A DNA stretch of 63,221 nucleotides, the filler included, from Craspedostauros australis (Eukaryota), in NCBI GenBank assembly GCA_030167865.1. It is 10 parts of 10 records of this genome, joined end to end, with 100 filler letters (N's around TTAATTAATTAA, not from the genome) between each part and the next. Parts side by side here need not be neighbours in the genome. Positions count along the whole stretch, not along the records: positions 13,251 to 33,901 come from JALAGF010006721.1; 9 more parts are not named here. One strand, 5' to 3'. Positions 5,054 through 40,818 of this stretch are shown here, in pieces (position 1 is the stretch's first letter; each line of letters opens with the position of its first letter). Position numbers and translations under genes: made by a program. The notes under the pieces were generated by a model that was not told where the DNA came from, did no database searches, and saw only the letters and a list, made by a program, of their open reading frames with translations.

Positions 5054-5097
5054 NNNNNNNNNNNNNNNNNNNNNNNNNNNNNNNNNNNNNNNNNNNN

Positions 5098-5109
5098 TTA
5101 ATTAATTAA
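5098..5109. other. Artificial contig linker TTAATTAATTAA flanked by N runs (also 9837-9848, 13195-13206, 33946-33957, 37390-37401, 40763-40774, 44664-44675, 48829-48840, 55983-55994)
   Basis: Identical 12-mer with stops in all six frames, always embedded in N blocks of the same length. Confidence 0.97.
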
Positions 5110-9892: not shown

Positions 9893-10129
9893 TACCATTG
9901 ATGCATGGACGGACGATTTTCTGATTCTTCCAGAAATCGTTATTTGCAAATTTCCTCCAGAAATCTTGCCCCTTTTTGTGTGTTCCATTTCCCCTGTAAT
10001 TCTGACNAATCACAGNATACTATNGACACGAGTATAGTTATACCGTCCAAGTGCGTATGAGAGAATAGCGGGTGAACGATGCACATATACACGTACATCT
10101 TGATATATACTCACATGTACATCTCGACA
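9893..10129 (-). mobile_element. LTR family A, partial, inserted into copia RT
   Basis: Reverse complement of ~7074-7310. TGTCGAGA begins directly after the RT codons for VDPCL. Confidence 0.8.
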
Positions 10130-13100: not shown

Positions 13101-13150
13101 ATCCCTTGTTAAGTAAGAGTTTCTCTGCAGAACGATTCTCTCCTGCGTTG
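10130..13150 (-). mobile_element. Ty1/copia pol (integrase C-terminus, acidic linker, RT N-terminus), family A; three overlapping variant copies separated by gaps
   Basis: TPQQNGRVERKFATLYGKVRAML, LWAEAA, KLDDRSKPAMFVGY, KWVFKEK, ARLVACGYSQ, DFETAFLHG and KTIYGLVQSARQW. Blocks 10130-11447, 11498-12455 and 12506-13150 overlap in content. Confidence 0.92.
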
Positions 13151-13250
13151 NNNNNNNNNNNNNNNNNNNNNNNNNNNNNNNNNNNNNNNNNNNNTTAATT
13201 AATTAANNNNNNNNNNNNNNNNNNNNNNNNNNNNNNNNNNNNNNNNNNNN

Positions 13251-13533: not shown

Positions 13534-14782
13534 TTTGGAGAAGAAGTGGGGATGTGCTGTGTGAGTATCGGCGGTGATGGTATTCTATGGGCTGTCCTTG
13601 GACTCTTCGCTCAAGCTTTGATGGAGTGTCTGTTGTTGTGTTGGATTTGGTGACACCGGATTGTGTTGTTGTGTGCCTGGCATCCTGGTTGGGGTTTTTG
13701 GGCAACTTTGTGGGGAGGGGATGCGTGGATCTTCCGGTGATGCCAAGAGATACGATTGCACTCGGTTGAGTCAATCGCAGTGATTTGGATGGTGATTGTT
13801 GGAGAAGATGCTCAAATTGTGAGGACAGACAGATGGCACGAAACCAAAGAAACCAGGAAATGCCAGTGACGTCATTCGTCGTTGCAACACTACAACTGGT
13901 AGCCACCACCAACACCAAGCAAGCAAACACAAGCAAACAACAACAAACTGGACATTGGCAGCAACCAGCCATAAATCCAGTTTAAAATATCTGATTACAC
14001 CACAACAACAATCCCATTGCTCTTCATCTGGTTTGCCGTTTGGTTCACTGCCAGGTAGAGGCCGGTGAAGGAGCCATTGCTTCAACAGCAGATGCCACAA
14101 TGACGCAAGCAAGCATGGCCCACGATGGTGGTGATGGCAGCTCCCTCTGTCTCTCTGTATCTCTGTGTATCTGTGTATCTGCCTCCGGAGACTTTCGCGT
14201 TGTTTGCTTCGAATTGATGTGGTGTTGATTGTGACTGAAGTCAATGTGTCGGAGGCAGACCCAAGCCACAAGACTGTCCAGACCAATGGAAACACCCAAC
14301 GACCATTTCGAACCACTTGGGTATGACCATCAACAATCTTTCGCATTCGTTGATCTTCTTCGCTGGTCTTGATCGTAGTCGAATCAGTCGAAGATTCGGG
14401 TTTTCGATGCCCCACAAAAGAGAACTCTGTTGTGGTGGGAACGTGTTTCCTTCCTTCCCTTGTTGTCTGTGGACATTTTCGTGATGGATGAGAACAAAAG
14501 GATCCAAACCGCACAAACCAGAGGGAGTGATCAAGAGGAGGCACAGACAACAAGACGCGTCACTCAACACCACACAACCCCATACTCGAGCACATCAACA
14601 ACAGACATCGAATTGCCATTCATACTACTATTCATCACGCAGTGTATGATACGCGTGCTACTACAAGCTATTGAAGACACACCATCGATATCTCTGCCAT
14701 AGGCATAATAGCTCAGATCACACACTTCCTCGACAGCCAATCCAACGCCAAAAGACCACCAACCATCAACCATCCTCTCAAC

Positions 14783-15640
14783 ATGCCGAATGTTACGAAC
14801 GAACAACTCCTTGGTGCTGCCGAGGCAGGTGACTTGTGGGTGTTGGAGGAATGGAAGAAGCAGAACCAGATACAGAATGAAGAAGTTGATGTCAACAAGG
14901 TTACAAACGAGATTGGTTGGACTCCCCTTCATTGGGCATGCATTGAGGGCCACCTGGAGTGTGTGGAGTACCTCATCAAATCATGTGGGGCTGACGTCAA
15001 CTGCAAAGACGACTTTGGTTCCACTCCCCTTCATGACGCATGCCACTACGGCCAGCTGGAGTGTGTGAAGTACCTCATCGAATCATGTGAGGCGAACATC
15101 AACTGCAAAGGCAACGATGGTTCCACTCCCCTTCATTGGGCATGCCACTACGGCCAGCTGGAGTGTGTGGTGTACCTCATCGAATCATGTGAGGCGAACG
15201 TCAACTGCCAAGACAGCGATGGTGACACTCCCCTTCATGACGCATGCCGCAACGGCCACCTGGAGTGTGTGGAGTATCTCATCAGATCATGTGGGGCTGA
15301 CGTCAACTGCAACAACGACAATGGTGAAACTCCCCTTCATGTGGCATGTCACAACGGCCACTTGGAGTGTATGGAGTCCCTCATTAGAGGACTTTCGCCT
15401 TCAGCTCACCCACAATTGCAACAACTGCAACAATGCTTACAACAAAACGAACAAGCAAATGAACAGCCACAAGAACAGTTGAGACAGCAGTTGAAGCGAA
15501 AGAGCCAAGAGAATGAACACAAGCACAGTAGCCACAAGAGGACCAACGTCAGCATTGGAGAAGACCGACTCAATCCTTCTAAACTGGGAACAGGACAGAC
15601 ACCATCTTCTTGTGTGGACAGGGCGACTAACAGCAACTAA
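14783..15640 (+). CDS. Ankyrin-repeat protein copy 1 (N-cap + 5 repeats + Gln-rich coiled linker)
   Basis: Five GxTPLHxAC...GHLECV motifs at a 34-aa (102-bp) period. Confidence 0.9.
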   Translation: MPNVTNEQLLGAAEAGDLWVLEEWKKQNQIQNEEVDVNKVTNEIGWTPLHWACIEGHLECVEYLIKSCGADVNCKDDFGSTPLHDACHYGQLECVKYLIESCEANINCKGNDGSTPLHWACHYGQLECVVYLIESCEANVNCQDSDGDTPLHDACRNGHLECVEYLIRSCGADVNCNNDNGETPLHVACHNGHLECMESLIRGLSPSAHPQLQQLQQCLQQNEQANEQPQEQLRQQLKRKSQENEHKHSSHKRTNVSIGEDRLNPSKLGTGQTPSSCVDRATNSN

Positions 15641-16418
15641 CCAAGGCAAACGCCGAAGTCCTGATGATCACCATCCCATCCATTGAGACACTGATCGACA
15701 AAGGAATCCAACATCAGCACACGAATGATGACACCGAAGACGGCGCGGCTCCATCCAAACAACCATCCCTCTTCCCAACATTCAACCAAACCATGTCCGA
15801 TACGTCCTCCAATGCATCTACACAGGCGAGATATCCCTCAATGACAGCGCTCGTGACAACGCCGTCACTCACATCGGTGCTCACGCCAACGCTCACCACG
15901 ATACAGATGCCTCTCACCAGCCAACTCCCACTCTCACTGGACAGGACGATCTGCAACAGCTGATCCTTGTGGCCAATGAGTTCGGCTTCTGGCGACTCAA
16001 GCTTGTTCTTGAAGTGGAGTTGGTCCGCAAGCATCTCACAGAGGACACCACGATAGATGCGTTGATATTCGCTGATCAACACAACTGTGTGGTGTTGAAG
16101 GATGCAACAATGAGAGTGGCAGCTGAAAGTGAGAAGGATAAGTTCACTCATCTAGATTTAAGCAAACTGATTCTACAACCTCAACTGATGGGAGGTATTC
16201 ATATCCTCCGCAATGGGGGAGCGGAGAGTGATGGTATTGATGATGAGTGCACTCGTATGTCCATGATGGAGCTGTACAAGGTTGTGGGTGAAGACGAGGG
16301 GATCGCGCAAGTGGATTCATACATGGATCGGGTGACATTGGTGGACTTCGTCCGCTCTATGACTACCAAATCATCCAAAATGATTGAGACGGACGGTGCT
16401 GCTGAAGAAGAGGGTTGA
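15595..16418 (+). pseudogene. BTB/POZ domain with helical C-terminal tail, copy 1 (stop and frameshifts)
   Basis: TDTIFLCGQGD*...KANAEVLMITIPSIETLIDK, then RYVLQCIYTGEI in a shifted frame, then LILVANEFGFWRLKLVLE...DALIFADQHNCVVLKDA. Confidence 0.75.
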
Positions 16419-18335
16419 ATTGCCAGACCAGACCATGCCATACCAGAAGTTTTCAAGAATTGGACGCATGACGGAATTGAGTTGATGGATAAAAATAGTC
16501 GTCAGAATAGTCATTAGGATAGTAACTATGTGAAAGGAGGTGGAGCAACTTGAGATCCAATCATTGAATGGTGCGTCCGCCATGCCTTCACCGTCGCCTT
16601 TGGTGATGTGCACAGCATGCTGCTCCCTGCACTCCTGTATCGTTTGGAGCGCGGTCTGGCTGGGCCGCGAGATACGCATGGTCTTCTGTGCATGAATTGC
16701 AGATGATCCCGGTTGGTGTAATGCACGTTGGTGTGCAACATCAGTGGCCAATGCGACATGAAGACGATGGTTCAGCCACCGCTGTCATTGTCATGGTCGT
16801 CATTGCCGATCCTATGGTTTCCGCGTTCGTTGGTGTCGATGATGTGAGCGGAGTTTTTGTGGGAAACGATGGTGGACCCTGCGGGCATCATGCATGCCTT
16901 GTAGGAATCGAATCCAACGTGACGGAGCGGGATGTACTACGGCTGTCAGCTTGTTGTTGTTGGTGGTGGTGGTGCTGCAGTTCGTGCATGATGTCGCGCA
17001 GGGCACAAGCGTATGCCAGCGGTTGCATGGCTTTCGATAGGTATGGCCGACAAAGCTGACGAGCAATGGGAGAAGTTGCCGACGTAATTGCACACAATTT
17101 CTTTCATTTGTCGATCTGAAAAGACAGTGCCTCTGTCTCATCGTTTGCGGTTTGTGGCTGCGACGTATCGCTTCGAGCATCGGTATGAACAGGCGTGGCT
17201 GGCTGTGGTACATGTAGTGGAAACTGAGGAACATCTCCGAACTGATGGCTCTGTTGGTCTCAGGAAAAGTCGCTGCGTTTGATCTCACAGATGTATCCGT
17301 CCAACATGTGCTGAATCTCCGTTTCAGACAACGCATCGGACGTTTATGTGGGTGGGCGCGGCTGCTGATGACTTGAATCCAGACCGCACCATGGGCCATG
17401 ACATTTCTTGCCATTTCTGTTGGTTCTGTTGTTGGTGCTGCCATTGCCCATGTCCCAAGCCCATCTTTACTCCGGAGCAGTGGGTGTGGTATCTTCCCTT
17501 CGGATGTTTCTGAGCGATGCGGCACGTTGGGGATCGCTGTTTGTCGCCGCTTGCCATTCATCATCAGCGTCATTCATCATCATCAGCAGCAGCAGCAGCA
17601 TCATCGTTGGCATCATCACAGTCTCTTGCCATAACCGCCTTCGTTGATTCTGGTTGGCGTGCCATATTTTGCGCAGCCGCCGCTTGTTTGGTTACTTCAT
17701 TGCTTCATTGCTTTGCTGCTTGACGGACAACGTCTCAGTGTTGGTTGATACCTCCATCAATGCAAACATAGTCATGCCATTTCATCTTTCTTGCTCTCTC
17801 TCTCTCTCTCTGGTTGTGTTGAAGTCGCTTGATGGATCATGTGCAAAATCGAAGATTCGTTGTTTTGGGTTGCGTCAAGAATTTTTGGCGCGTTTGTTGA
17901 TTACTCGTCTGTCTGCCATCCGTTGTTCATTCAACCAGTGACACACACGTCACCAATGCGTCATCTTCATGCAAAGCAACTCTGTTCGGCGATGGCAATG
18001 GCGATGGCGACCCCTCCAACGGCGTCGCATCCCTTCACATCGGTACCACCAACACAAACAATCAGACAAGATGACAAGATGATGAGTCATCGACATCCAA
18101 GAGGAACTGTGGGAAGGCTCGCCAGTTGCTCCGTACCCTTGACCCACTCGTCCTACGATTATGAGTATTACTATGGAACCTCCCATGAGCACGATCTACT
18201 CTGGGAGTTGCCACAGCCAAGCGTCCAGCCTGATAGGTACTCTGTTCGAACCTTCGTACAGCCTGTGCGGTCATGCGGTCATGACCATCGAAGTTGCTGG
18301 AAGAGGGCGGTGATAGACTGATAGCAGAGAAGAAC

Positions 18336-20434
18336 ATGGAGACCAAGCAACCGCAACAGGCCGACACGAAATCGAAGGCGAGCAAGTCCACCAGCGTCGC
18401 CCAAGAGGCCAAAGCAGCTGCAAATCAGGTCGTCGTGCGAGTGTCAGCACAGATACACCAAGCAGTGCCAATAGAAGCACAGCCAAAGATGCGAAAGCTT
18501 CAGCTGTGAAACGATCATGTGCGAAGAGTCTGGACATGCTCAACATGCAAGATCACGAGACATCATTCAGCTCCCTTGATCCCAGCAAGTTCATCAACAA
18601 CGAATCGATGCCGGTGCCAAACATCCCAGGTGGACTCAGCTTCGCCACAGCCCCGGCACTTGGCGCAACCCATGAACGGATCAACCAAGACAAGACGAAG
18701 CTTGCCCAGAGTCGGAGAAGCAGGCCAAGGCCAAGAACGAATTCCAACGGAACGACCAGCAGCGACAAATCGAGGAGCAAGAGTTTGGAATCCTTGGAAT
18801 TTTCGAAGGACGGACACAACATGCCAGGCACAACATACACACCAGGCGCATTGAGCGCAGCCAGCACCCCGGCTCTACCTCGAGTTGCGACAACGAAGAA
18901 GTCACACAGCAAGATCCTGGAGTCACGCTCCAATCTGCCAAGTCTCCACGATGACGACAGCGTCGACGATGGCAGCGTCGACGTTGCGACAAGTGCTGCC
19001 GTAACGAACGGTGGGAGAAGCTCTGCGGCCCCTGTCACGCCTGGAGGTCGGAGCGCGGCATCTACACCAGCCCCCTTCAGCCGCACACATGAAAAGAGAC
19101 AACAGTCTTCGTCGTTGAACAAGCGCAGGTCAACGTTGGACAGCATCCTCAAGGCCAAACGATCATCATTACGTGAAGTGTCGTTGACCAATCCTCCCAA
19201 ATCGAAGCAACGACCATCTCTCGAATCCCGACCATCGCAATTGGCCAATCTTGCCTTGACCAAAGCATCCGCAAAGGCGCCATCATCGCCATCATCGTCG
19301 CCACCGTCATCATCATCATCACAGTCCAAATCCAAACTCAATCTTCAACAGTTCGAACGCGAACACGAACACGGAGGTGTCTCGGCCACAACCCCAAGCC
19401 CCATCCAGTCCTGGAGCCTTGAGTTTGGGAATCGAATTGCAATCGAGCAAGAAGAACCGGGTGGCTCCTTCTCGCAACAGATCTGCACGCAGTTCGTTGC
19501 GCCCAAGCGAAGACTCAAAGCAACGACGTTCATGCGGACAAAGCACGGGTGTTCTGCGTGATGAGAAGCGATCAAGGAAAGGATCTCCAAGGTGCTTGGC
19601 AATGGGCCCCGACATCACCACTCCAGCAAAACAAGAGACGTGTCATCACCATTGATGTTACCATCGATATTACCATCGCCACGGCATCGGCGGAGAAGCA
19701 CACAGCACACCAGTGGCAAGCTGCATTCAACATCGTCAAGATCAAAGAGTGTGGAGCATTCGACATCATTGTGCCATCGTCGTGACGGAGCAATTTACAC
19801 TTCCTCCTCTGGAAGAAGCTGCCGCTCGCCATCGGCGCGGAGTCGTCGAAGCCCATCCGATCGTGGCCGTAGAAGAACTGCGCAAGTATCGATGGACTCA
19901 TCGCCATCATCACGGCGACAACGAACATCTGGCAGCTCGGATGATATGAACACAGCCTCACGTTCACACGAAACCAACTCAAATGCGCACTCCACCGGTA
20001 CTGGTTTGCACCAACGCAAGGGCTCACCTTCCCGAAGCATGCCCGGGGAAGTTCGCGAAGACCAAATCAACGTGGCCGCAGCCAATCGACACCATGTGGC
20101 GAAGATCAGCGAAGGAAGTCCTCCGATGAACGATCACCATCGGCGCGACAACGAAGCAGATCAAGAGGATATCGAAATGACAGCGTCGAACGGCACAGCA
20201 ATGAGCGAGATGACAATGGACGGCATGACAAGGAACAGCATGGCAAAGAACAACATGGCAACAAACGTTCGTCATCACGCGGGGCACTTCAATCAAATCG
20301 CCGTGGACGAAGCAGATCGTCAACTCGCGATGCTGTCTACCATGAGAAGCTGTCCGGCACAAAACCACTGCAACTCATATCAAAGAAAGCAGTCAGGAGC
20401 AAGAGCTCATCTCAGTACAACGATCGCTCGATGA
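18336..20434 (+). pseudogene. Ser/Thr/Arg-rich low-complexity gene of unknown function, frameshifted (unit 1)
   Basis: ORF pieces 18294-18509, 18506-19561 and 19592-20434 are collinear with the unit-2 ORF 25962-27140. No recognisable domain. Confidence 0.45.
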
Positions 20435-22486
20435 ATGGTACCAAAACTCTCGCCCTGTGATGCATCACGACACGATGGGATGGAATGAGATGTGTGGGCC
20501 GCTCCGTATTTGTATCATGCTCATAGAGGTATGGTAGACTCATGTCGCTGTAATGTAATACACCTATGAATAGACTGTACTTCTCTACGTATGTTTGGAA
20601 CAGTGCCATATGCACTATATCTGCTCGTGCAATAGAACACTGTGATGAAGTCACTGGATGTGTCAAGAGATTGCAGGGCTGGATACTGCTCCCACGCTGC
20701 CTCCGCCTTGTCTGCAACTTGTCTGGTCCGCTCTCTGCGGTATAGTACATACCCACACAGGGATATTGCCGATGTCATTCACAAGCAGATTGGACGTCCG
20801 TGGTTCCGCCCACACTCCGCCATCAGCATCGTTGTTGGTTCGTTGCGCAGACAAAGGACGCATGGCAGCAGCATAATCACAAGCTGTGCGGTCGTCACCG
20901 TGCCACCGGATTCACACATAAAGCACTCCACTCCAAGTCACACACTGTCAAACAGATTGAAAGCTACAGTGCCGATGCCAGTCGATCCAAGTTGCTGGCA
21001 GAGACGATCTACGAAGAGCACATGGCGAACAAGGCAGAGAGAAATGGTGAGAAGCCGTGAGGAGCATGGTTGCTGCACGGTTCCATCGACTGTCCCCTAT
21101 CGCGCTATTGTCCTCATCTCTCCATGAGTTGCACTCCGCCATTGCGCCAACACTGCAGTCGAGACCCTTACCAGGTCCCAGGAGGAGCAATCACTTTTCG
21201 TTGGAGCAACAAATGCCGAGGTCACCATCTATTCCGATCTTCGAAGCTACCAGTGCCAGTGTGGCGGAAAGACAAGAACCGACGAGCCAGTGCAGTCCAA
21301 GCATCCTGAGAGCTTGATGAGCAAAAGAGGAAACCAACGAACCAACGAGCAACCCCATGCAGAGTGCGAGTGCCGTATTGCGGATCATGGTTGACACAGA
21401 GTTCCATACAGCACAAGAAGCACGTGGTCAGCGATCCATGGCCCATTCGCACCGTACACCCACATATCCTCCTTCGTGGTGCTCCCAACTTCGTTGATGA
21501 GACGGAGGTTCTTGTCGATCGCCTCGGTTGAGCATCGATGCTCTGGAAGTCACGAGCCAAGACGGCGGCACTCATGCCTATTGATAGAATGCGCGTGGTG
21601 TTGTGTGTTGGTGGTCCGTGTGGCAGGAACAGTGGAGGCGGCACAGTATCACTCCGCCTGATGCTTGCCGAACATGCCAACCCATCCCAATACGCAATGT
21701 GGTGTTGGTTGGATGTTGAGGACTCTTGTTGCCTGTGCGGATGGTGATGGTTGCAATGCGGTGGGATGGCAAACAGTCAAATCCAAATGAGATGGGTCAC
21801 AACCAACACAGGCAATCAACAAAGGCAGTCACATTGGTGGCTTCATCGGTGGCTTCATCGGTGGCTTCATGGTTGTTCGAGGCATTGGCTCACACCTCAA
21901 GTTGGTGCTTGCGATGGCAGGCGGACAAGGGCCAGAGGTCTTGCAGATGCCACGATGACGCAAGCAAGCGTGGGCCATGGTGCACATGGCGACAGCTCCC
22001 GCTGTCTCTTTCTCTCTTTCTGTATCTCAGCCTCCAAAGACTTTCACATTGTTTGCTTCGGATTGGTGTTGCGTTGATTGTGGCCAAACGAGAACTCTGT
22101 TGTGGTGCTTCTTTCTTGTTGTTGGTCGCACGCATTTTCGTGATGGATGGGAACAGAAAGATCCAATCCGCGCGAACCAGACGCGTTTGATCAAGAGGAG
22201 ACAAACACAGGCAAACAGAAGGAGGAGACCATGCGAACAAGACAACAACACACACACATCACTCAACACCATACTCAACCGCGTGAACAACAGACATCGA
22301 ATTGCCACTCATATTCATCACACAGCGTATGGTACTCATACTCATACTCATACAAGCTGTTGCACACAAACATCGATATCTCTTCCATAGGCAGCTCCGA
22401 CCACAGACATCCTCGACAGCCAATCCAACGTAAATCGTCCAACGTCCAACGTCTATCGTCCAGCGACCATCCACCACACTCTCAAA

Positions 22487-23287
22487 ATGCCGAATGTTAC
22501 GAACAAACAACTCATTGATGCTGCCAAGGCTGGTGACTTGTCAGTGTTGAAGGAATGGAAGAGGCAGAACGAGGCACAGAATGAAGGAGATGGTGTCGAC
22601 AATGTCACAGACTGGATTGGTCGCACTCCCCTTCATTGGGCGTGCTATTCTGGCCACTTGGAGTGTGCCAAGTACCTCATCGAATCATGTGAGGCGGACA
22701 TCAACTGCAAAACCAACCAAGGTCGCACTCCCCTTCATCAGGCATGCTACAACGGCCACCTGGAGTGTGTTGTGTACCTCATCGAATCATGTGAGGCGGA
22801 CATCAACTGCAAAAACAACTATGGTTCCACTCCCCTTCATCGGGCATGCACGCGTGGCCACCTGGAGTGTGTCAAGTACCTCATCGAATCATGTGAGGCG
22901 GACATCAACTGCAAAGACAACGATGGTTACACTCCCCTTCATCTGGCATGCTACAACGGCCACCTGGAGTGTGTCAAGTACCTCATCGAATCATGTGGGG
23001 CGAACATCAACTGCCAAAACAACCGAGGTGAAACTCCCCTTCATTGGGCATGCTCCAAGGGCCACCTGGAGTGTATGGAGTCCCTCATTAGAGGACTTTC
23101 ACCTTCAGTTCACTCACAACTGCAACAACTGCAGCAACACTTACAACAAAACGAACAAGCAAATGAACAACCACAAGAACAGTTGAGACAGCAGTTGAAG
23201 CGAAAGAGCCAAGAGAATGAACACAAACACAGCAGCAACAAGAGGACCAACGTCAGCATTGGAGAAGACCGACTCAAATCCTCCTAA
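22487..23287 (+). CDS. Ankyrin-repeat protein copy 2 (N-cap + 5 repeats + Gln-rich linker)
   Basis: Five TPLHxAC motifs. Ends at a TAA that is in frame with the downstream BTB sequence. Confidence 0.9.
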   Translation: MPNVTNKQLIDAAKAGDLSVLKEWKRQNEAQNEGDGVDNVTDWIGRTPLHWACYSGHLECAKYLIESCEADINCKTNQGRTPLHQACYNGHLECVVYLIESCEADINCKNNYGSTPLHRACTRGHLECVKYLIESCEADINCKDNDGYTPLHLACYNGHLECVKYLIESCGANINCQNNRGETPLHWACSKGHLECMESLIRGLSPSVHSQLQQLQQHLQQNEQANEQPQEQLRQQLKRKSQENEHKHSSNKRTNVSIGEDRLKSS

Positions 23288-24078
23288 ACTGGGAACAGGA
23301 CAGACACCATCCCCTCGTGTGGACAGGGCGACCAACAACAACCAATCAAGGCAAACTCTGGAGTCCTCCTGATCGCTGCCCCATCCATTGAGACACTGAT
23401 CGACAAAGAAATCCGACATCAGCACGCGAATGATGACATCGAAGACGGCGCGGCTCCATCCAAACAACCATCCCTCTTCCCCACCTCCAACCAAGGCACG
23501 ACCGATACGTCCTCCAATGCATCTACACAGGCAAGATATCCTTGAATGACAGCGCTCGTGACAACACCGCCACTCACATCGGTGCTCACGCCAACGCTCA
23601 CCACGATACAGATGCCTCTCACCAGTCAACTCCCATCCTCACTGGACAGGATGATCTGCAACAGCTGATCCTTGTGGCCAACGAGTTTGGCTTCTGACGA
23701 CTCAAGCTTGTTCTTGAAGTGGAGTTGGCCCGCAAGCATCTCACAGAAGACACCATGATAGATGCGTTGATATTCGCTGATCAACACAACTGCGTGATGT
23801 TGAAGGATGCAGCAATGAGAATGGCAGCAGAGAGAGAGAAAGATATGTTCACTCATCTAGATTTAAGCAAACTAATTCCACACCAGCAACTGATGGGAGG
23901 CATTCATGTCCTCCGCAGTGGGGGAGCGGAGAGTGATGGCATTGATGGTGAGTACAGTCACATGTCCATGGTGGAGCTGTACAAGGTTGTCGATGAGGAT
24001 GAGGGTACAGCACAAATGGATTCATACATGGATCGGGCGACACTGGTGGACTTCGTCCGCTCTATGAGAGCCAATTGA
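23288..24078 (+). pseudogene. BTB/POZ domain with helical tail, copy 2 (degenerate)
   Basis: In frame after the TAA: TGNRTDTIPSCGQGDQQQPIKANSGVLLIAAPSIETLIDK. A frameshift and a TGA follow, then DALIFADQHNCVMLKDA. Confidence 0.75.
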
Positions 24079-25961
24079 TCCAAAGGGATTGAGGCGGATG
24101 GCACTGCCGAGGAAGAGGAGTGACGTGTCAGACCATACTATCACAGAAGTCTTCGAGAAGCGACCGCATGACGGATTTGAGTTGATGGATAAGAATAGTC
24201 ATCAGAATAGTCATTAGGATAGCAACTGTGTGAAAGGAACTGAAGCAATTTATGATCGATTCATTCAATGGTGCGTCTGGCATGCCTTGACCGTTGCTTT
24301 TGGCGATCCGCACAGCATGCTGCTCCATGCACTCCCGTATCGTTTGCAGCACGGTCTGGCTAATCCGCGAGATACGCATGGTCTTCTGTGCATGAATTGC
24401 AGATGATCCCGGTTGGTGTAAGGCACGTTCGTGTGCAGCATCAGTGGCCAATGCGACATGAAGACGATGGTTCAGCCACCGCTGTCATCGTCATGGTCGT
24501 CATTGCCGATCCTATGGTTTCCGCGTTCGTTGGTGTCGATGATGTGAGCGGAGTTTTTGTGGGAAACGATGGTGGACCCCACGGGCATCATGCATGCCTT
24601 GTAGGAATCGAATCCAACGTGACGGAGCGGGATGTGCTACGGCTGTCAGCTTGTTGTTGTTGGTGGTGGTGGTGCTGCAGTTCGTGCATGATGTTGCACA
24701 GGACACAAGCTCACGTCAGCTGCTGCCTGGTTGTCAATATGGCCGACAAAGATGACGAGCAATGGGAGAAGTTGCCGACGTCATAGCACACGATTTCTTT
24801 GATCTGTGGATCCGATGAGAGCATGCCTCTGTCTCATTGTTTGCGGTTTGTGGCTGCGACGCATCTTTTTGAGCATTGGTATGAACAGGCGTGGCTGGTT
24901 GCGGCGCATGTTGTAGAAACTGAGGAACATCTCCGAACAACAGGCTCTGTTGGTGTCGGAAGAAGCTGCTGAGTCCGATCTCACAGATGCACCCGTCCAA
25001 CATGTGCTGAATCTCCGTCTCCGACAGCGCATCGGACGTTTATGTGCGAGCACGCTGCTGGTGATGACTTGAATCCAGACCGCACCATGGGCCATGACAT
25101 GTCTTGCCATGGCTGTTGGGTTCTGTTGTTGGCGCTGCCATTGCCCACGTCCCAAGATATTCTCTACTCCGGAGCAGTTTGTGTGATATCTTCCTGTCGG
25201 ATGTCGCTGAGTGATGTGACACGTTTGAGATCGCTGTTTGTCGCCGCTTGCCACTCATCATCATCATCAGCGTCATCATCATCGGCATCATCATCGTCCC
25301 TTGCAATGGCCGCCTTCGTTGATTCTGGTTGGCGTGCCATATTTGCGCAGCCGCCGCTTGCTTGATTACTTCATTGCTTGACAGACAATGTCTCAGTGTT
25401 GGCTGATACCTCCATCAATGCAAACATACTCATGCCATTTCATCTCTCTCTCTCTCTCTCTCTTGTTGTGTTGGTGTTGTTTGATGGATCGTGGCGCAAA
25501 ATCGAAGATTCGTTGTTTCGGGTGGTGTCAAGAATTTTTGGCGCGTTTGTTGAGTACTCGTCTGTCTGCCGTCCGTTGTTCATTCAACCAGTGACGCACG
25601 CACACACTCACAACCAACATCACCAATGCGTTGTCTTCATGGAACGCAACTCGGTTCGACGATGGCGATGGCGACCACTCCAATGATGCTGCATCCCTTC
25701 ACATTGGTACCACCACCAATAACACAAACAGCCAGACAAGATGACAAGATGATGAGTCATCGACATCCAAGAGGAACTGTGGGAAGGCTCGCCAGTTGCT
25801 CCGTACCTTGACCCACCCATCCTACGACTATGAGTAATACTATGGAACCTTCCATGAGCACGATCTACTCTGGGAGTTGCCACAGCCAAGCGTCCAGCCT
25901 GATAGGTACTCTGTTCGAACCTTCATGAGGTCATGAGGTCATGAGGTCATGACGATCGGAG

Positions 25962-27850
25962 TTGGTAGAAGAGGACGGTGTCAGACTGATAGCAGAGAAG
26001 CAAACGGAGACCAAGCAACCGCAACAGGCTGACACGAAATCGAAGGCGAGCAAGCCCATCAGATTCGCCAATGAGGCCAAAGCAGCTGCAAAATCAGGTC
26101 GCCGTGCGAGTTTCAGCACAGATACACCAAGCAGGGCCAGTAGAAACACAGCAAAAGATGCGAAAGCTTCGGCTGTGAAACGATCACATGTGAAGAGTCT
26201 GGAGATGCTCGACATGCAAGATCACGAGATGTCATCCAGCTCCTTTGATCCCAGCAAGTTCAACACCAACGAATCGATACCGGTGCCAAACACCCCAGAT
26301 GGACTCAGCTTCGCCACAGCCCCAGCACTTGGCGCAACCTGCGAACGGATCAACCAAGACAAGACGAAGCTTGCCCAGAGTCGGAGATACAGGCCAAGGC
26401 CAAGAACGAATTCCAACAGAATGACCAGTAGCGACAAATCGGGGAGCAAGAGTTTGGAATTCTTGAAGGATGGACACCGCATGCCAGGCACAACATACAC
26501 ATCAGACACATCAGGCGCGATGAGTGCAGCCAGCACCCTGGCTCCACCTCGAGCTGCGACAACGGAGACGTCACGCAGTGAGAGCCTGGAGTCACGCTCC
26601 AATCTGCCAAGTCTCCACGACAGCGTCGACGTTGCGACAAGTGCTGCTGCAACGAACGGTGGGAGAAGCTTGGCGGCCCCTGTCACGCCTGGAGGTTGGA
26701 GCGCGGCATCTACACCAGCCCCCTTCAGCCGCACACATGAAGAGAGACAACAGTCTTCGTCGTTGAACAAGCGCAGGTCGACGTTGGAAAGCATCCTCAA
26801 GGCCAAACGATCACCATTACGTGAAGTGTCGTCAACCAATCCTGCCAAATCGAAGCAACAACCATCTCTCGAATCTCGATCATCGCAATTGGCCGATCTT
26901 GCCTTGACCAAAGCATCCGCAAAGGCGCCATCATCGTCGCCATCATTAACACAGTCCAAATCCAAACTCAATCTTCAACAGTTCGAATGCGAACACCAAC
27001 ATGGAGGTGTCTCGGCCACAACCCCAAGCCCCATCCAGTCCTGGAGCCTTGAGTTTGGGAATCGAATTGCAATCGAGCAAGAAGGACCGGGTGGCTCCCT
27101 CTTGCAACAGATCCGCACGCAGTTCGTTGCGCCCAAGTGAAGACTCAAAGCAACGACGTTCACACGGACGAAGTACGGGTGTTCTGCGTGATGAGAAGCG
27201 ATCAAGGAAAGGATCTCCAAGGTGCTTGGCAATGGGCCCCGACATCACCACTCCAGCAAAACAAGAGACGTGTCATCACCATCACCATTGATATTACCAT
27301 CGGTATTACCATCGATATCACCGTCGCCACGGCATCGGCGGGGAAGCGCACAGCACACCAGTGGCAAGCCGCACGCGACATCGCCAAGATCAAAGAGTGC
27401 GGAGCGTTCGCCATCATTGTGTCATCNNNNNNNNNNNNNNNNNNNNNNNNNNNNNNNNNNNNNNNNNNNNNNNNNNNNNNNNNNNNNNACACCTGGCAGC
27501 TCGGATGATATGAACGCAGCCTCGCGTTCACGCGAAGCCAACTCAAATGCGCACTCCACCGGTACTGGTTTGCAAAGGCGCAAGGGTTCACCTTCCAGAA
27601 AGCATGTCCGAGGAAGTTGGCGAAGATCAGCAAAGGAAGTCCTCCGATGAACGATCACCATCGACGCGACAACGAAGCAGATCAAGAGAATATCGAAATT
27701 ACAGCATCGAACGGCACAGCAATGAGCGAGGTGAAAATGGACGGCATGGCAAACAACAACATGGCAATAAACGTTCGTCATCACGCGGGGCCTTCAATCA
27801 AATCGCCGTGGACGAAGCAGATCGTCGACACGCGATGCTGTCTACCATGA
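25962..27850 (+). pseudogene. Ser/Thr-rich low-complexity gene, unit 2 paralog
   Basis: 392-aa ORF homologous to 18336-19561. The unit-1 ATG is ACG here and there is a premature TGA at 27138. Confidence 0.45.
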
Positions 27851-30259
27851 GAAGATATCTGACACAAAGCCACTGCAACTCACACCAAAGAAAGCGGTCA
27901 GGAACAAGAGCGCGTCTCAGTGCCGCCATCCCTTGATGAATGGTACCAACACTCACACCCCGTGATGCATCACGACATGATGGGATGGAATAAGATGAGA
28001 TGGATGGGCCGCTCCGTATTTGTATCATGCTCATAGAGGTATGGTAGACTCACGTCGCTGTAATGTAATGCACCTACAAATAGACTGTACTTCTCTACGT
28101 ATGCTTGGAACAGTACCGCATGCACTATATCTGCTTGTGCAATAGAACGCTGTGATGAAGTCACCGGATGTTTCAAGAGATTGAAGGGCTGGATACTGCT
28201 CTCACACTGCCTCCACCTTGTGTACGACGAGTCTGGTCCGCTCTCTGCGGTACAAACGCACACAGGGATGTTGTCGATGTCATTCACGAGCAGATTGGAC
28301 ATCTGTGGTTCCATCCGCACTCTGCCATGAGCATCGTTGTTGGTTCGTTGCACAGACAATGGACGCATGGCAGCAGCATTTTCACAAGCTGTGCGGTCGT
28401 CGCAGTGCGGTCGTCACCGTGCCACCGGATTCACACACAGAGCACTCTCCACTCCAAGTCACACACTGCCAAGCCGATTCAAAGCTACAGTGCCGATGCC
28501 AGCCGATCCAAGTTTGTGGAAGAGACGATCTACGAAGAGCACATGGCGAACAAGGCAGAGAGAAATGGTGAGAAGCCGCGAGGAGCATGGTTGCTGCGCG
28601 ATTCCATCGACCGTCCCGTATCACGCTATTGTCCTCATCTCTCCATGAGTTGCGTTCCCACCATTGTGCCAACACTGCAGCTGAGACCCTCGCCAAGTCC
28701 CAGGAGGAGTGATCACTCGCCGTTGGAGCAACAAATGCCAGGGTCACCATTCATTCCAATCTTCGAAGCGAGCAGTGCCAGCGTGGCGGAAAGACAAGAA
28801 CCGACGAGACAGCGCAGTCCAAGCATCCTGAGAGCTTGACGAGCAAAAGAAGACACCAACCAACGAACCAACCAACGAGCAACCCCATGCAGAGTGCGAG
28901 TGCCGTATTGCGGATCATGGTTGACACAGAGTTTTCGTATGGTACAAGAAGCACACGGTCAGCAATCCATGGCCCATGGATACCGTATCTCCACATGTCC
29001 TCCTTCGTGGTGCTCCCAACTTCGTTGATGAGACGGATGTTCCTGTCGATCACCTCGGTTGGGCATCGATGCTCTGGAAGTCACGAGCCAAGACGGCGGC
29101 GCTCGTGCCTGTGGATAGAACGTGCATGGTATTGTATGTTGGTGGTCCATGCAGCAGGAACAGTGGAGGCGGCACGGTATCGCTCCGCCTGTTGATTGCT
29201 GAAGGTGCCAACCCATCCCAATACGCAATGGGGTGTTGGTTGGATGTTGAGGACTCTTGTTGCCTGTGCGGATGGTGATGGTTGCAATGCGGTGGGATGG
29301 CAACCAGCCAAATCCAAATGAGGTGGGTCGCGACCAACGAAGGCAACCAACAAAGGCAACCAACAAACGCAGTCACATCAGTGGCTTCATCGTTGTTCGA
29401 GGCATTGGTTCGAACCTCAAGTTGGTGCTTGTGATGACAGGCGGGCAATCGTGTCTTGCAGATGCCACGATAACACAAGCAAGCGTGGGTCATGGTGTAC
29501 ATGGTGGTGGTGATGGCAGCTCCCTCTGTCTCTCTGTATCTCTGTGTATCTGCATCCAAAGACTTCCGTGTTGTTTGTTTCAAATTGTTGTGGTGTTGAT
29601 TGTGACTGAAGTCGAGTTGTTGGAGGCAGACTCAAGACCGAAAGACCGTTCAGACCAATGGAAACACCCAACGACCATTTCGAACCACTTGGGTATGACC
29701 ATCAACAATCTTTCGCATTCGTTGTGCTTCGACAGATGTCAACACAGTCATTGATCTTCTTCGGTGATCTGACTCATAGTCGTATCAGTCGAAGATTCTC
29801 GTTTTCGACAATGCCACACAACAGAACCCTGTTGTTGTCAGAACCCTCTGTTGTCTTCCTTCTTGTTGTTGTTCATGTACTACTAGTCGTAGAAGTAGTA
29901 GTACATACTCGTGATGGATGGGAACAGGAGGATCCAAGCCGCACGAACCAGAGAGGGGTGCGATCAAGAGAAGGAGGCAAACACGACGATGCTTGTGCGC
30001 AACGAGAGAAAGAGAGGACACGTGCGAACAAGACAACAACACACTCGAGCACATCAACAACAGACATCGAATTGCCACTCATTGTCATCACAACGTGAAT
30101 AGTACTCATCCTAATACAAGCTATTGAAGACACCACGATCGACATCTCTGCCATAGGTAGCTCAGACGACACATTTCCTCGACAGCCAATCCAACGCCCA
30201 TCGTTCAACGTTCAACGTCCAACGTCAATCGTCCAGCAACCATCGACCATCCTCTCAGA

Positions 30260-31432
30260 ATGCCGAATGTTACGAACGAACAACTCCTTGGTGCTGCCAA
30301 CAGAGGCGACTTGTCGGTGTTGAAGGAATGGAAGAAGCAGAATGAAGGAGTTGACATCAACCGCCAAGACATGTTTGGTCACACTCCCCTTCATGGCGCA
30401 TGCAACAATGGCCACCTGGAGTGTGTGGAGTACCTCATCAAATCATGTGGGGCTGACGTCAACTGCAAAGGCATGTTTGGTTACACTCCCCTTCATGGCG
30501 CATGCAACAATGGCCACCTGGAGCGTGTGGAGTACCTCATCAAATCATGCGGGGCTGACGTCAACTGCAAAGACGACTTTGGTTACACTCCCCTTCATCA
30601 GGCATGCAACAATGGCCACCTGGAGCGTGTGAAGTACCTCATCAAATCATGTGGGGCTGACGTCAACTGCAAAGGCATGTTTGGTCGCACTCCCCTTCAT
30701 CAGGCATGCAACAATGGCCACCTGGAGCGTGTGAAGTACCTCATCAAATCATGTGGGGCTGACGTCAACTGCAAAGACGACTTTGGTTACACTCCCCTTC
30801 ATCAGGCATGCAACAATGGCCACCTGGAGCGTGTGGAGTACCTCATCAAATCATGTGGGGCTGACGTCAACTGCAAAGGCATGTTTGGTTACACTCCCCT
30901 TCATGGCGCATGCAACAATGGCCAGCTGGAGCGTGTGGAGTACCTCATCAAATCATGCGGGGCTGACGTCAACTGCAAAGACGGTAAAGGCTCCACTCCC
31001 CTTCATGGCGCATGCAACAATGGCCAGCTGGAGCGTGTGGAGTACCTCATCAGATCATGTGGGGCTGACGTCAACTGCAAAGACGGTGAAGGCTCCACTC
31101 CCCTTCATAAGGCATGCGCCAACGGCAAGCTGGAGTGTATCGAGTCCCTCATTAGAGGACTTTCGCCTTCAGCTCACCCACAATTGCAACAACTGCAACA
31201 ACACTTACAACAAAACGAACAAGGAAATGAACAACCACAAGCACAGTTGAGACAGCAGTTGAAACGAAAGAGCCAAGAGAATGAACACAAGCACAGCAGC
31301 CACAAGAGGATCAACGTCAGCATTGGAGAAGACCGACTCAATCCTTCTAAACTGGGAACAGGACAGACACCATCTTCTTGTGTGGACAGGGCAACTAACA
31401 GCAACCAATCAAGACAAACGCCGAAGTCCTGA
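30260..31432 (+). CDS. Ankyrin-repeat protein copy 3 (N-cap + 8 repeats + Gln-rich linker)
   Basis: Eight near-identical 102-bp repeats. Confidence 0.9.
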   Translation: MPNVTNEQLLGAANRGDLSVLKEWKKQNEGVDINRQDMFGHTPLHGACNNGHLECVEYLIKSCGADVNCKGMFGYTPLHGACNNGHLERVEYLIKSCGADVNCKDDFGYTPLHQACNNGHLERVKYLIKSCGADVNCKGMFGRTPLHQACNNGHLERVKYLIKSCGADVNCKDDFGYTPLHQACNNGHLERVEYLIKSCGADVNCKGMFGYTPLHGACNNGQLERVEYLIKSCGADVNCKDGKGSTPLHGACNNGQLERVEYLIRSCGADVNCKDGEGSTPLHKACANGKLECIESLIRGLSPSAHPQLQQLQQHLQQNEQGNEQPQAQLRQQLKRKSQENEHKHSSHKRINVSIGEDRLNPSKLGTGQTPSSCVDRATNSNQSRQTPKS

Positions 31433-32073
31433 TGATCACCATCCCATCCATTGAGACACTGATCGACAAAGGAATCCAACATCAATGCGTTCACGATGGC
31501 ACTCACGATAGAACTGAACGCATCCACACAACCATTCCTCTTCCCAACCTTCAACCAAAACACGTCCGATACGTCCTCCAATGCATCTACACAGGTGAGA
31601 TATCCTTTGATGACAGCCCTCGTGACAACGCCGCCGCTCACCACGATACAGATGCCTCTCACCAGCCAACTCCCATCCTCACTGGGCAGGACGATCGGCA
31701 ACAGCTGATCCTTGTGGCCAACAAGATCGGCTTCTGGCGACTCAAGCTTGTTCTTGAAGCAGAGTTGGCCCACAAGCATCTCACAGAGGACACCACGATA
31801 GATGCGTTGATAATCGCTCATCAGCACAACTGTGTGGTGTTGAAGGATGCAGCAATGAGAGTGACAGCTGAAAGTGAGAAGGATATGTTCACTCGTCTAG
31901 ATTTAAGCAAACTGATTCTACAACCCCAACTGATGACGGAGATCCAGGTGTTTTCCAGTGGGAGAGCCAAGAGTGATGGTACTGATGATGAGTACAGTTG
32001 GATGTTCATGATGGACCTGTACAAGGTTATGGATGAGGATGAGGACACAGTACTATATCTGCTCGTGCAATAG
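31432..32073 (+). CDS. BTB/POZ-derived ORF, copy 3 (open, 3' end fused at the deletion junction)
   Basis: TIPLPNLQPKHVRYVLQCIYTGEI...LILVANKIGFWRLKLVLE...HQHNCVVLKDAAM. Its ATG overlaps the ankyrin stop (TGATG). Confidence 0.6.
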   Translation: MITIPSIETLIDKGIQHQCVHDGTHDRTERIHTTIPLPNLQPKHVRYVLQCIYTGEISFDDSPRDNAAAHHDTDASHQPTPILTGQDDRQQLILVANKIGFWRLKLVLEAELAHKHLTEDTTIDALIIAHQHNCVVLKDAAMRVTAESEKDMFTRLDLSKLILQPQLMTEIQVFSSGRAKSDGTDDEYSWMFMMDLYKVMDEDEDTVLYLLVQ

Positions 32074-34001
32074 AACACTGTGATGAAGGCACCGGATGTT
32101 TCAAGAGGTTGAAGGGCTGGATACTGCTTCCATGCTACCTCCTTGTCTACGACTTGTCTGGTCCGCTCTCTGCGGTACAAACGCACACAGGGATGTTGCC
32201 GATGTCATTCACGAGCAGGTTGGACGTCCGTGGTTCCATCCATGCCCTGCCATCAGCATCGTTTTTGGTTCGTTGCGCAGACAATGGACACATGGCAGCA
32301 CCATTTTCACAAGCCGTGCGGTCGTCGCGGTGCGGTCGTCATCGTGCCGCCGGATTCGCACACAGAGCACTCTACTCCAAGCCACACTGCCAAGCAGATC
32401 CAAAGCTACAGTGCCGATGCCAGCCAATCCAAGTTTGTGGAAGAGGCGATCTACGAAGAGCACGTGGCGAACAAGGCAGAGGGAAATGATGGGAAGCCGC
32501 GAGGAGCATGGTTGCTGCGCGGTTCTATCGACCGTCCCATATCGCCCTATCGTTCTCATCTTTCCCGGAGTTGCACTTCCGCCATTGCGCCAAAACTGCA
32601 GTCAAGACCTTCACCAAGTCCCAGGAGGAGCGATCACTCGCCGTTGAAGCAACACATGCCAGGGTCACCATCCATTCCAATCTTCGAAGCAAGCAATGCC
32701 AGTGTGGTGGAAAGACAAGAACCGACGAGCCAGCGTAGCCCAAGCATCCAGAGAGCTTGACGAGCAACAGAAGAAACCAACGAACCAACAAGCAACCCCA
32801 TGCAGAGTGCGAGTGCCGTATTGCGGATCATGGTTGACACAGAGTTTCCGTATGGTAGAAGAAGCATGCGGTCAGCGATCCATGGCCCATGAGCACCTTA
32901 TACCCACATGTCCTCCTTTGTGGTACTCCCAACTTCTTTGATGAGGCGGATGTTCCTGTCGATCACCTCGGTTGAGCATCGATGCTCTGGAAGTCACGAG
33001 CCAAGACGATGGCGCTCATGCCTCAGGATAGAATGCGCATGGTATGATATGTTGGTGATCTGTGCGGCAAGAACAGTGGAGGTGGCACGGTATCGCTCTG
33101 CTTGTTGATTGTTGAAGGTGCCAACCCATCCCAACACGCAATGTGATGTTGATTCGGTGTTGGGGACTCTTGTTGCCTGTGTGGATGGTGATGCTTGCAA
33201 TGCGGTGGGATGGCAACCAGCCAAGTCCAAATGAGATGGGTCGCAAGCAACAAAGGCAACCAACAAACGCAGTCACGTCAGTGGCTTCATCTTTGTTCGA
33301 GGCATTGGCTCGCACCACAAGTTGGTGCTTGCGATGGCAGGCGGACAAGCGTCAGCGGTCTTGCAGATGCCACGATCACACAAGCAAGCGTGGGTCATGG
33401 TGTACATGGTGGTGGCATCATCTCTTACCTTGGTCGTTTCTGTTCAATCTGTTCGGCGTACCCCACCGCATTTCGCGCAGCCGCTTGCTTGCCTCGCCGC
33501 TTCGTTGCTTGGCTGGCGCTGCTTCCATGTTGGCGACACTTCCATCAACGCAAACGTGGTCATGGTCATTTGGTGGGAACTTCGCCGAACCAAAGATCTC
33601 TTTTTCGGGCGGTGTCAAGAATTTTGGCGCGCTTCACTCGTCTGTATGTCATCCGTGGCTGATTCCTCTCAAAAATGGCGGGTCTCGATTTGCCACGATT
33701 GTGCGGCTGGAAAATCAACGATGACGAGGACGCAAACACATGCTCAAGCTGGAACGGTCATTTTTGTTGTCACTCAGCTCTGTTCGACGATGGCGATGAT
33801 GGCGATGATGGCGATGATGACCCTCCCAAAGGCCGGAAATGAGACCCAACGCTGGGATCGCAGAGCGGAGCAGGAGACAACATGAGGAAGTGAAGCTCCA
33901 CNNNNNNNNNNNNNNNNNNNNNNNNNNNNNNNNNNNNNNNNNNNNTTAATTAATTAANNNNNNNNNNNNNNNNNNNNNNNNNNNNNNNNNNNNNNNNNNN
34001 N

Positions 34002-37000: not shown

Positions 37001-37345
37001 ATGGTTGTACCCGTAGACAGGCAACTCGTCGAACATGTGTCCGTCGCGTACGCCGTTGTCCGATGGATGGTGAATCCAGAGCAGGCGATCCGCGGCCATG
37101 GCGCTCATACGCGAGATCAGGTTCTTCGGGAGTGGCGGGAGACGATTCTCCTCAAGCAGATCGTTGATGTCGATTGCCTTACTCGCCACGTCGTATGCTC
37201 CGATCACGCCGATGGTCATCAGCATGAAGTACACACTCCGCACTTCCATGCGGTTCTCGTTGATGCCTTGGTATGCCTCCATCGCGTCATAGCAGATGAG
37301 CGAGAGGTCGGAACGAACATCGTTCGCAGGCATCACGTTGGACAG
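34002..37345 (-). mobile_element. Ty1/copia pol (protease-integrase-RT), family A relative; frame open across the gaps
   Basis: WLGDSGASCH, CEDCAIGK, FMDTS, IRCDNAGEN, TPQQNGRVER, DFETAFLHG, TYVxDCL. PR-IN-RT order is diagnostic of copia. Confidence 0.95.
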
Positions 37346-37445
37346 NNNNNNNNNNNNNNNNNNNNNNNNNNNNNNNNNNNNNNNNNNNNTTAATTAATTA
37401 ANNNNNNNNNNNNNNNNNNNNNNNNNNNNNNNNNNNNNNNNNNNN

Positions 37446-40557: not shown

Positions 40558-40818
40558 TCTGCGAGAACAGAATGATGTACCGCACTGAACACAAGAAGGG
40601 GAGTACAGCAGGAGATCATATAATACATCTGTGTTTTTATTGTACATGCCCACATTTGTATTATTCGCCCATCGGAGGCTGATGAGGTTAGATCTTGTGA
40701 TGGATCGGCTGACTTCCGNNNNNNNNNNNNNNNNNNNNNNNNNNNNNNNNNNNNNNNNNNNNTTAATTAATTAANNNNNNNNNNNNNNNNNNNNNNNNNN
40801 NNNNNNNNNNNNNNNNNN

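Follow-up and report, generated by a model that had tools for sequence, protein, structure and literature searches.

The 63,221-nucleotide stretch of DNA analysed here (the window) comes from assembly GCA_030167865.1 of the diatom Craspedostauros australis and contains four open reading frames (ORFs), A1 to A4, that are built from a repeated 102-bp ankyrin unit. The 63-kb window consists of ten contigs chained by nine identical linkers (N44-TTAATTAATTAA-N44) and gene adjacency across these linkers therefore carries no meaning. A1, A2 and A3 are located on the plus strand of one 20.6-kb contig (13251-33901), where they are borne by a tandem segmental duplication with a unit of about 7.7 kb, which extends on the plus strand over 14549-33415 inside the single contig; units 1 and 2 of this duplication are 86% identical across 5.3 kb. 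A4 is located on the minus strand of a different contig (48885-55938) and is therefore not linked to A1-A3. An earlier note on this DNA, made from the sequence alone, had described four paralogs at 14783, 22487, 30260 and 55830; all four are repeat genes as it stated, but A4 is on a separate piece of DNA and on the opposite strand.

A1 (14783-15640, plus strand; 285 aa) encodes an N-terminal cap, five ankyrin units of 34 aa (14897-15406) and a glutamine-rich (Q-rich) linker, and leaves the reading frame after ...GEDRL. The ORF of A2 (22487-23287, plus strand; 266 aa) contains five ankyrin units (22601-23110) and the Q-rich linker and stops after ...EDRLKSS at a TAA codon that A1-A3 share, and in A3 (30260-31432, plus strand; 390 aa) eight units (30359-31174) and the linker are followed by a frameshift. 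A4 (53646-55830, minus strand) has 15 units (54192-55830) and, beyond a gap of 50 N at 54142-54191 that interrupts the array, five further units (53646-54141); it ends with ...LLESYPW and a stop codon, without linker and without the BTB part described below. The sequences on either side of the gap are 90% identical.

In total 38 ankyrin units were found in the window (5, 5, 8 and 15+5 per gene), each 102 bp (34 aa) long. Tandem Repeats Finder detected period-102 arrays at 14914-15384 (4.6 copies), 22619-23088 (4.6) and 30352-31152 (7.9) and, in A4, at 54195-55690 (14.7) and 53657-54141 (4.8). The Pfam ankyrin models (PF00023 and PF12796) matched all four ORFs with E-values from 2e-58 to 1e-167 and scores of 191-534 bits against a cut-off of 21.1, the number of matched stretches being 5, 5, 8 and 15 in A1-A4. 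At the DNA level the framework motif ACTCCCCTTCAT occurs 34 times, always at 102-bp spacing, compared with 0.01 expected occurrences, and the motif TACCTCATCNNNTCATG occurs 23 times compared with 0 expected. The composition of the four ORFs from a 102-bp ankyrin unit, the near-identity of the framework DNA and the difference in repeat number, all of which had been proposed before, were confirmed, where repeat number was compared between paralogs within one assembly (5, 5, 8 and at least 20). The mean framework nucleotide distance between repeats within one gene was 0.09-0.17 and many pairs differ at only 0-3 of 78 positions, and the amino-acid identity between adjacent repeats, with hypervariable positions and caps counted, was 0.64 in A1, 0.70 in A2, 0.84 in A3 and 0.71 in A4.

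The unit has 34 residues instead of the canonical 33; according to an alignment with ankyrin-1, the additional residue lies in the loop that follows helix 2. This length is a variant and gives no ground for excluding the genes from the ankyrin repeat proteins. Each 34-aa unit also carries four nearly fixed cysteines (positions 2, 15, 22 and 30, in the contexts NC..., AC, EC and SC; e.g. 14999-15100), which is unusual for ankyrin repeats; they may serve metal binding or redox chemistry or may have no role.

Variation on the predicted binding face

An AlphaFold model of A2, predicted from the single sequence (predicted local distance difference test score, pLDDT, of 80), has five helix pairs at 34-residue spacing, together with two cap helices at the N-terminus and one long helix that corresponds to the Q-rich linker. 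Positions 13, 16 and 17 of the unit lie in the first helix of each pair and positions 3-8 in the loop before it; the spacing of the former in the numbering (i, i+3, i+4) suggests that they are on one face of that helix. The best matches to the model in the PDB, as found with Foldseek, were the consensus-designed ankyrin 4o60 (45% identity) and many designed ankyrin repeat proteins (DARPins), with target-normalised template modelling (TM) scores of 0.91-0.93 and a root-mean-square deviation (rmsd) of 0.9-2 Å. Compared with designed ankyrins (including 4o60 and 2xee), A2 has 39-45% identity and superposes with an rmsd of 0.9-2.9 Å. The prediction is in agreement with the DARPin-like binding positions that the earlier note had seen in the sequence. 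The set randomised in DARPins (positions 2, 3, 5, 13, 14 and 33) is equivalent to unit positions 5, 6, 8, 16, 17 and 3 here, and position 13, which is the most variable one in the window repeats, corresponds to a fixed leucine in DARPins.

[quoted passage not shown] As far as this excerpt goes, they correspond to unit positions 5, 6, 8, 13 and 16 (+3) in A1-A4. The window arrays resemble DARPins and ANK-N5C in their near-consensus framework and differ from them in being natural and not designed, in a cysteine-rich framework (C2, C15, C22, C30), and in having ESC[G/E]A where the designed ankyrins have K-x-GA, the 34-aa unit containing one more loop residue after helix 2.

The eight unit positions that had been named as variable (3, 4, 5, 6, 8, 13, 16 and 17), which comprise the beta-turn, the residues on either side of TPLH and the pair behind AC, are referred to as hv8, and positions 6, 8, 13 and 16 are the core four hypervariable codons. 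Among 29 internal repeats, entropy peaks at position 13, directly after TPLH (10 residues, 3.13 bits), and at positions 16 (9 residues), 6 (7) and 8 (6), with moderate variation at positions 3, 4, 5 and 17, and N1, T9, H12, A14, L20, Y25 and L26 are invariant. Some positions of the outer helix and loop (24, 28, 31 and 33) also vary moderately, the changes being mostly charge swaps.

The hv8 codons on the beta-turn and inner helix diverge faster than silent sites. For 27 unique repeats the proportion of nonsynonymous differences at hv8 divided by the proportion of synonymous differences at all codons, pN(hv8)/pS(all), was 1.87 (bootstrap 1.53-2.33), and pN/pS was 2.63 for the core four (bootstrap 2.16-3.19) and 0.41 for the framework. 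Nonsynonymous divergence (dN) among 28 internal repeats was 0.59 at hv8 and 1.08 at the core four; synonymous divergence (dS) in the framework was 0.22 and framework dN 0.10. These values are pairwise Nei-Gojobori counts with bootstrap on recombining repeats, obtained with no site model and from repeat pairs that are non-independent. Transversions outnumber transitions at the hypervariable codons (2080 versus 1314) and the opposite is seen in the framework (998 versus 2086). The per-codon entropy and dN/dS values place the variation at the positions named in the earlier note, and neither of two patterns that it had set against its own proposal was seen: instead of an even spread over codons, the per-site rate of change of the hv8 codons is about three times that of the remaining codons, and as to decay of CpG sites, a consensus CpG was found at only 1 of 21 variable hypervariable columns.

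We infer that diversifying selection acts on the ankyrin binding face. What speaks against this is that homogenisation of the framework by conversion lowers dS in the pairwise test, and in an explanation without positive selection hv8 would merely be an unconstrained surface, with conversion and recent duplication having homogenised the framework, silent sites included. The synonymous divergence of the framework is low within A1, A2 and A3 (pS 0.04-0.075, compared with 0.19 over all repeats), which points to recent homogenisation. The two unit types that alternate in A3 suggest that this gene grew by recent duplication of a 204-bp double unit, which is in favour of such an explanation, and the same positions are those with the highest entropy in ordinary ankyrins, which is the reason for their randomisation given in PMC4308713. 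However, among repeat pairs whose frameworks differ at no more than 3 nucleotides, up to 12 of 24 hypervariable nucleotides are different; repeats 3 and 4 of A3, for example, have 0/78 framework differences and 6/24 hypervariable ones, and in the 33 closest repeat pairs (at most 3/78 framework differences) the hypervariable per-site difference is 9.4 times that of the framework. Conversion of whole repeats would also erase the differences in the variable codons. Furthermore, the hypervariable pN of 0.41-0.47 (0.465 between A1 and A2, whose colinear repeats were compared at matching positions and have an overall pS of 0.155) is two to four times the divergence of the non-coding flanks between duplicated units (0.10-0.185), which a neutral site should not exceed, and 37% of the codon pairs at hypervariable positions differ at 2-3 nucleotides, compared with 3% in the framework. 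We regard an explanation without positive selection as unlikely and prefer diversifying selection on the binding face.

Truncated genes and their probable ANK-BTB ancestry

A 366-aa BTB domain-containing protein derived from transcripts of C. australis (P0040) shares with the window genes its N-terminus (MPNV...) and its Q-rich linker; it has one ankyrin repeat ahead of this linker and a BTB/BACK part behind it. It was the sole close relative among 3748 matches from 5762 candidates of near length, the rest being generic ankyrin proteins. The single ankyrin repeat of P0040 (residues 45-70) is a hybrid of the start of a first repeat and the end of a last repeat; it may represent a real one-repeat gene, or the transcript assembly may have collapsed near-identical repeats. 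P0040 maps colinearly downstream of A1, A2 and A3, with changing frames and no intron, in agreement with the intronless structure claimed previously. An intron at the ANK-BTB junction was considered and rejected, given that P0040 maps gap-free and that an intron over the lesions would delete the BTB core.

Remnants of the BTB/BACK part were found on the plus strand behind each of the three genes. The remnant of A1 (15572-16288) is colinear with P0040 residues 128-366 and has a 1-bp deletion after EDRL, two CAA>TAA changes and a second frameshift before IQTTIP. In that of A2 (23288-23991) the frame shifts before IQTTIP and a TGG>TGA change puts a stop in FGFW, and that of A3 (31339-32031) has lost 1 bp after EDRL and, in frame, another 24 bp, and contains two TAA stops. 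The TAA at P0040 Q131, at the start of the BTB domain, is common to A1, A2 and A3, and each of them has 2-3 further stops or frameshifts, so that the BTB reading frame is not uninterrupted in any of them. The 1-bp deletion after EDRL and the second CAA>TAA are common to A1 and A3, the frameshift before IQTTIP is common to A1 and A2, TGG>TGA was found in A2 alone and the 24-bp deletion in A3 alone. An alternative genetic code in which TAA encodes glutamine was also considered, two TAA codons being located at glutamines of P0040, and was rejected since these codons occur together with frameshifts and a TGA and an ordinary transition turns CAA into TAA.

The earlier note had described open frames beside decayed neighbouring genes. 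Because the BTB/BACK sequence is colinear with P0040, these "neighbours" are the C-terminal half of an ancestral ANK-BTB gene to which the ankyrin ORFs also belong, severed by the shared TAA. The statement that all four frames are open holds for the ankyrin ORFs, but the genes are not intact; compared with a full-length member, their frames run only as far as a premature stop or frameshift. Judged by their sequence, the window copies encode at most ankyrin-only proteins.

The lesions shared by A1 and A3, by A1 and A2 and by all three copies fit no single tree and therefore point to exchange between copies. Repeat 4 of A2 and repeat 12 of A4, located on different contigs, have 0/78 differences in the framework and 3/24 at the hypervariable nucleotides. 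The family has probably undergone concerted evolution through unequal crossing-over and gene conversion, both inside single copies and from one copy to another. Of the earlier proposal of a repertoire diversified by recombination, the part concerning exchange is supported by these signs among paralogs.

An exhaustive HMMER search with the tail ORF of A1 identified 55 relatives, and every one of them that has a name is a transcript of C. australis; the earlier comparison with the brown alga Ectocarpus was not supported, as the nearest named relatives come from a diatom. A Pfam scan of 16 proteins (15 of the 55 relatives and P0040) gave eight with ANK and BTB, four with MATH and BTB together with a BPM/SPOP BACK domain, three with BTB only and one with BACK only. 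The self-identity of the transcript relatives peaks at an offset of 34, the same period as in the window genes, but their repeats are ordinary, with an adjacent-repeat identity of 0.11-0.56 compared with 0.64-0.84 in the window genes. A search with the BTB region found two proteins among 453 candidates. For the BTB fold and the BACK/3-box helices (PF00651, PF24570), the protein modelled was the transcript relative P0040 rather than any of the window copies. Its model, built from an alignment of 19 sequences (pLDDT 72.8, and 85-95 over most of BTB/BACK), matches the SPOP BTB structure 4j8z with a target-normalised TM score of 0.81 (E = 4e-7, probability 1.00), and further matches were full-length SPOP, KEAP1, KBTBD2-CUL3 and the BTB-BACK of KLHL11, with SPOP chains in the top ranks.

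The colinearity of P0040, the relatives with ANK and BTB, and the SPOP-like fold together indicate that the ancestral layout was cap, ankyrin array, linker and BTB/BACK. We consider it probable that A1-A4 belong to a lineage-specific family with an N-terminal cap, 34-aa ankyrin repeats, a Q-rich helical linker and a SPOP-type BTB with BACK. As to their present status, we lean, with less confidence, towards copies that were disabled not long ago and lie in an unplaced part of the assembly rich in transposons. The following results weigh against the interpretation as a whole. The Pfam BTB matches of the window tails are partial (21.1 bits for A1, against a cut-off of 20.5 and covering profile positions 51-82, and 18.0 bits for A3). 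No multi-repeat member of the exact subfamily with an intact BTB was found, in a search for longer proteins that was crowded by generic ankyrin proteins and gave no match above 55% identity. Finally, the BTB remnants have a dN/dS of 0.44-0.67, close to the 0.46 of the ankyrin framework. The BTB score of P0040 itself is 20.0 bits, just below the cut-off, and seven other ANK-BTB relatives have BTB scores of 24-34 bits, five of them across nearly the whole profile. Two scans of metagenome contigs gave pattern matches of which 0/64 and 0/81 were confirmed.

A different explanation, possible but in our judgement clearly behind the one above, is that the ankyrin and linker ORFs are functional as stand-alone binders (decoys, inhibitors or scaffolds) and are held open by selection while the BTB part decays. 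All four ankyrin ORFs are open, and neutral ORFs of about 790-1640 bp at 0.05-0.08 substitutions per site are expected to acquire 2-5 stops per lineage. Between units 1 and 2, only 1 indel event was found in the 1506-bp gene compared with 19 in 2262 bp of flanks, and none is located in the ankyrin part (789 bp), where about 6.6 would be expected from the flank rate. In addition, the linker has a dN/dS of 0.14-0.45, and the TAA is common to three copies and may hence be old. However, the BTB remnants, with 1 indel in about 717 bp and the dN/dS values given above, look as constrained as the ankyrin framework. The later lesions, four in the BTB part and none in the ankyrin part, give only p ~0.06 (binomial estimate), so that the sequences point only suggestively to an ankyrin half that is kept while the BTB half decays. 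The copies are also located among Copia fragments in unplaced contigs, and frame-restoring variants exist among contigs of the one public run, of uncertain kind, that contains this sequence (X1), which indicates that the disabled state is not the norm of the family. The copies were either disabled recently or are being refreshed by conversion from intact relatives, and, whether disabled or still used, they could act as donors of repeat cassettes.

The X1 contigs also bear on the quality of the assembly. In X1, 2042 contigs are at least 90% alike (584 at least 99%) over 19.4 kb, which hints at many sequence variants; their summed depth is no copy number. Two bins had no X1 cover (18382-19028 and 26146-26792), which carries no information. 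At 15571/15572 and 31339 some contigs have an extra, frame-restoring base and others lack it. It is conceivable that short-read assembly of a repetitive family produced the stops and frameshifts and/or the repeat counts, the genes themselves being intact members with ANK and BTB. In favour of this, the contigs have no assigned place, contain gaps and are joined by linkers, A4 is split by a gap whose two sides are nearly alike, and at 31339 most of the X1 depth (149.7 of 200.5) has the extra A. Against this, three copies with no more than about 86-90% identity have the same TAA, and other lesions are common to two copies each; because the same lesions recur across diverged copies they are not independent errors. 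Frameshifted versions also exist outside the assembly, as the inserted base is missing from most of the X1 depth at 15571/15572 (about 324 of 511), and one X1 contig of 187 nt is identical to A2 over 22501-22687. An assembly artefact is in our opinion very improbable.

Comparison with known systems and a possible role

By homology, the ancestral layout would be that of a cullin-3 (CUL3) substrate adaptor in which ankyrin replaces MATH, and full-length members of the family would, from their similarity to SPOP, be substrate adaptors of CUL3 ubiquitin ligases. Selection of the target would fall to the ankyrin groove and docking of the ligase to the BTB/BACK part. Unequal crossing-over and gene conversion would shuffle the repeats and diversifying selection would act on the binding face. 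The nearest known kind is the repeats of fungal NOD-like receptors (NLRs), and the nearest functional analogy is the fast-evolving MATH-BTB adaptors.

Dyrka et al. 2014 (PMC4986451) describe the ANK, TPR and WD repeats of fungal NLRs as highly internally conserved and polymorphic in repeat number, with positive selection on about five ankyrin positions of the concave face (inner helices and beta-hairpin). The window family has in common with them alike repeats that vary in number, concerted evolution within and between members, and selected concave-face positions, and both would by analogy represent the same evolutionary regime. The criterion given there is at least 85% identity over at least 100 aa (PMC4986451), compared with 0.64-0.84 in the window, where A3 nearly reaches it, and the comparison of repeat number in the window is between paralogs and not between alleles. 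The family differs further from the fungal NLRs in that its partner domain is a SPOP-like BTB/BACK, its nearest named relatives are from a diatom and its unit has 34 and not 33 aa. No NACHT or NB-ARC Pfam match was found in A1-A4, their flanks or their relatives, and the window family is therefore not an NLR.

A paper by Thomas from 2006 is reportedly the original one on rapidly evolving nematode MATH-BTB families. In nematode MATH-BTB and F-box adaptors, positive selection is reported to act on the substrate-binding and not on the cullin-binding domain, and these families were proposed to be detectors of foreign proteins (PMC4334554). The BTB/BACK part of the window family is nearest to that of MATH-BTB proteins (SPOP/BPM) both by sequence (4 of the 16 scanned proteins are MATH-BTB) and by fold. 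It differs from these adaptors in having an ankyrin array as the substrate module, in window copies that are without an intact BTB and in that its CUL3 role is predicted. Plant NPR1/BOP proteins are similar in that BTB and ankyrin are combined in one protein, and NPR1 structures were found at ranks 47 and 49 of the fold matches. However, the BTB comes first in NPR1, the order thus being reversed, the similarity is low (query-normalised TM of about 0.4, rmsd of about 12 Å), and NPR1 is without a highly conserved, hypervariable repeat array of the kind seen in the window genes. Among the papers returned by a library search on diatom expansions of ankyrin repeats with BTB, none was found, judged by title or abstract, to report on such a family.

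An immune-like role of the family is plausible by analogy with these systems. A much more far-reaching scenario, which we offer as speculation and think improbable in its entirety, is that this lineage of diatoms maintains a large repertoire of rapidly shuffled ANK-BTB CUL3 adaptors, whose DARPin-like ankyrin grooves would have diversified so as to catch changing foreign proteins (viral, parasite or transposon) for ubiquitination as a form of intracellular recognition independent of NLRs. The truncated tandem copies would then be silent cassette donors by conversion into intact members, like pseudogene donors elsewhere. The family unites two marks of recognition repertoires, namely near-identical repeats with selected binding-face residues and an adaptor domain of ubiquitin ligases, and intracellular recognition of viruses, parasites and selfish DNA in diatoms is largely unknown. 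Provided that there are intact members and that they bind CUL3, the family would offer a concrete, testable candidate in a major marine algal group for defence by target-specific destruction of proteins, and it would be a natural counterpart to engineered ankyrin binders.

Surroundings of the genes

The linkers that join the contigs are located at 5054-5153, 9793-9892, 13151-13250, 33902-34001, 37346-37445, 40719-40818, 44620-44719, 48785-48884 and 55939-56038 (no strand), and ORFs that touch them (e.g. 55983-58946 and 33950-37336) are cut at contig ends. Domains of Copia-type retrotransposons (RVT_2, gag, Pol_BBD and retroviral SH3) were detected in 7 of 25 long ORFs scanned, on five contigs other than that of A1-A3. 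The pieces of these long terminal repeat (LTR) retrotransposons, with RVT_2, gag, zinc knuckle, Pol beta-barrel and retroviral SH3, are located at 2-1582, 10010-12454, 12508-13149, 34004-37345 and 49084-52326 on the minus strand and at 44722-45867 and 46446-47537 on the plus strand, and several of them are long open frames. An LTR pair flanking the Copia element below A4, whose insertion could conceivably have truncated this gene, was looked for and none was found.

None of 11 further ORFs scanned in the 7.7-kb unit has a credible match in Pfam, the one match obtained being YmaF with 18.3 bits, below the cut-off of 27. Two Ser/Arg/Lys-rich open frames without a Pfam match (414 and 289 aa) are located on the plus strand at 18317-20434 and, in the copy, at 25953-27140. 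The p-distance between the stretch at 18317-20434 and its copy in unit 2 is 0.075, which is less than the 0.10-0.13 of the spacer around it, and for this reason the frame may be a real gene. A second zone in which X1 contigs pile up is present in each unit (20323-21616, 28087-29380 and 32616-33262), with ORFs that have no Pfam match; the zone at 20323-21616 and its copies may be another repeated element.

On other contigs, an open frame of about 1000 aa at 56040-59039 (minus strand), which runs off the contig end, and an 803-aa frame at 2645-5053 (plus strand) were both without a Pfam match. A 37-bp tandem repeat is present in three copies at 7902-8012, and the 485-bp stretch at 7455-7939 is 92% identical to 52342-52821 on another contig, just above the Copia frame that adjoins A4.

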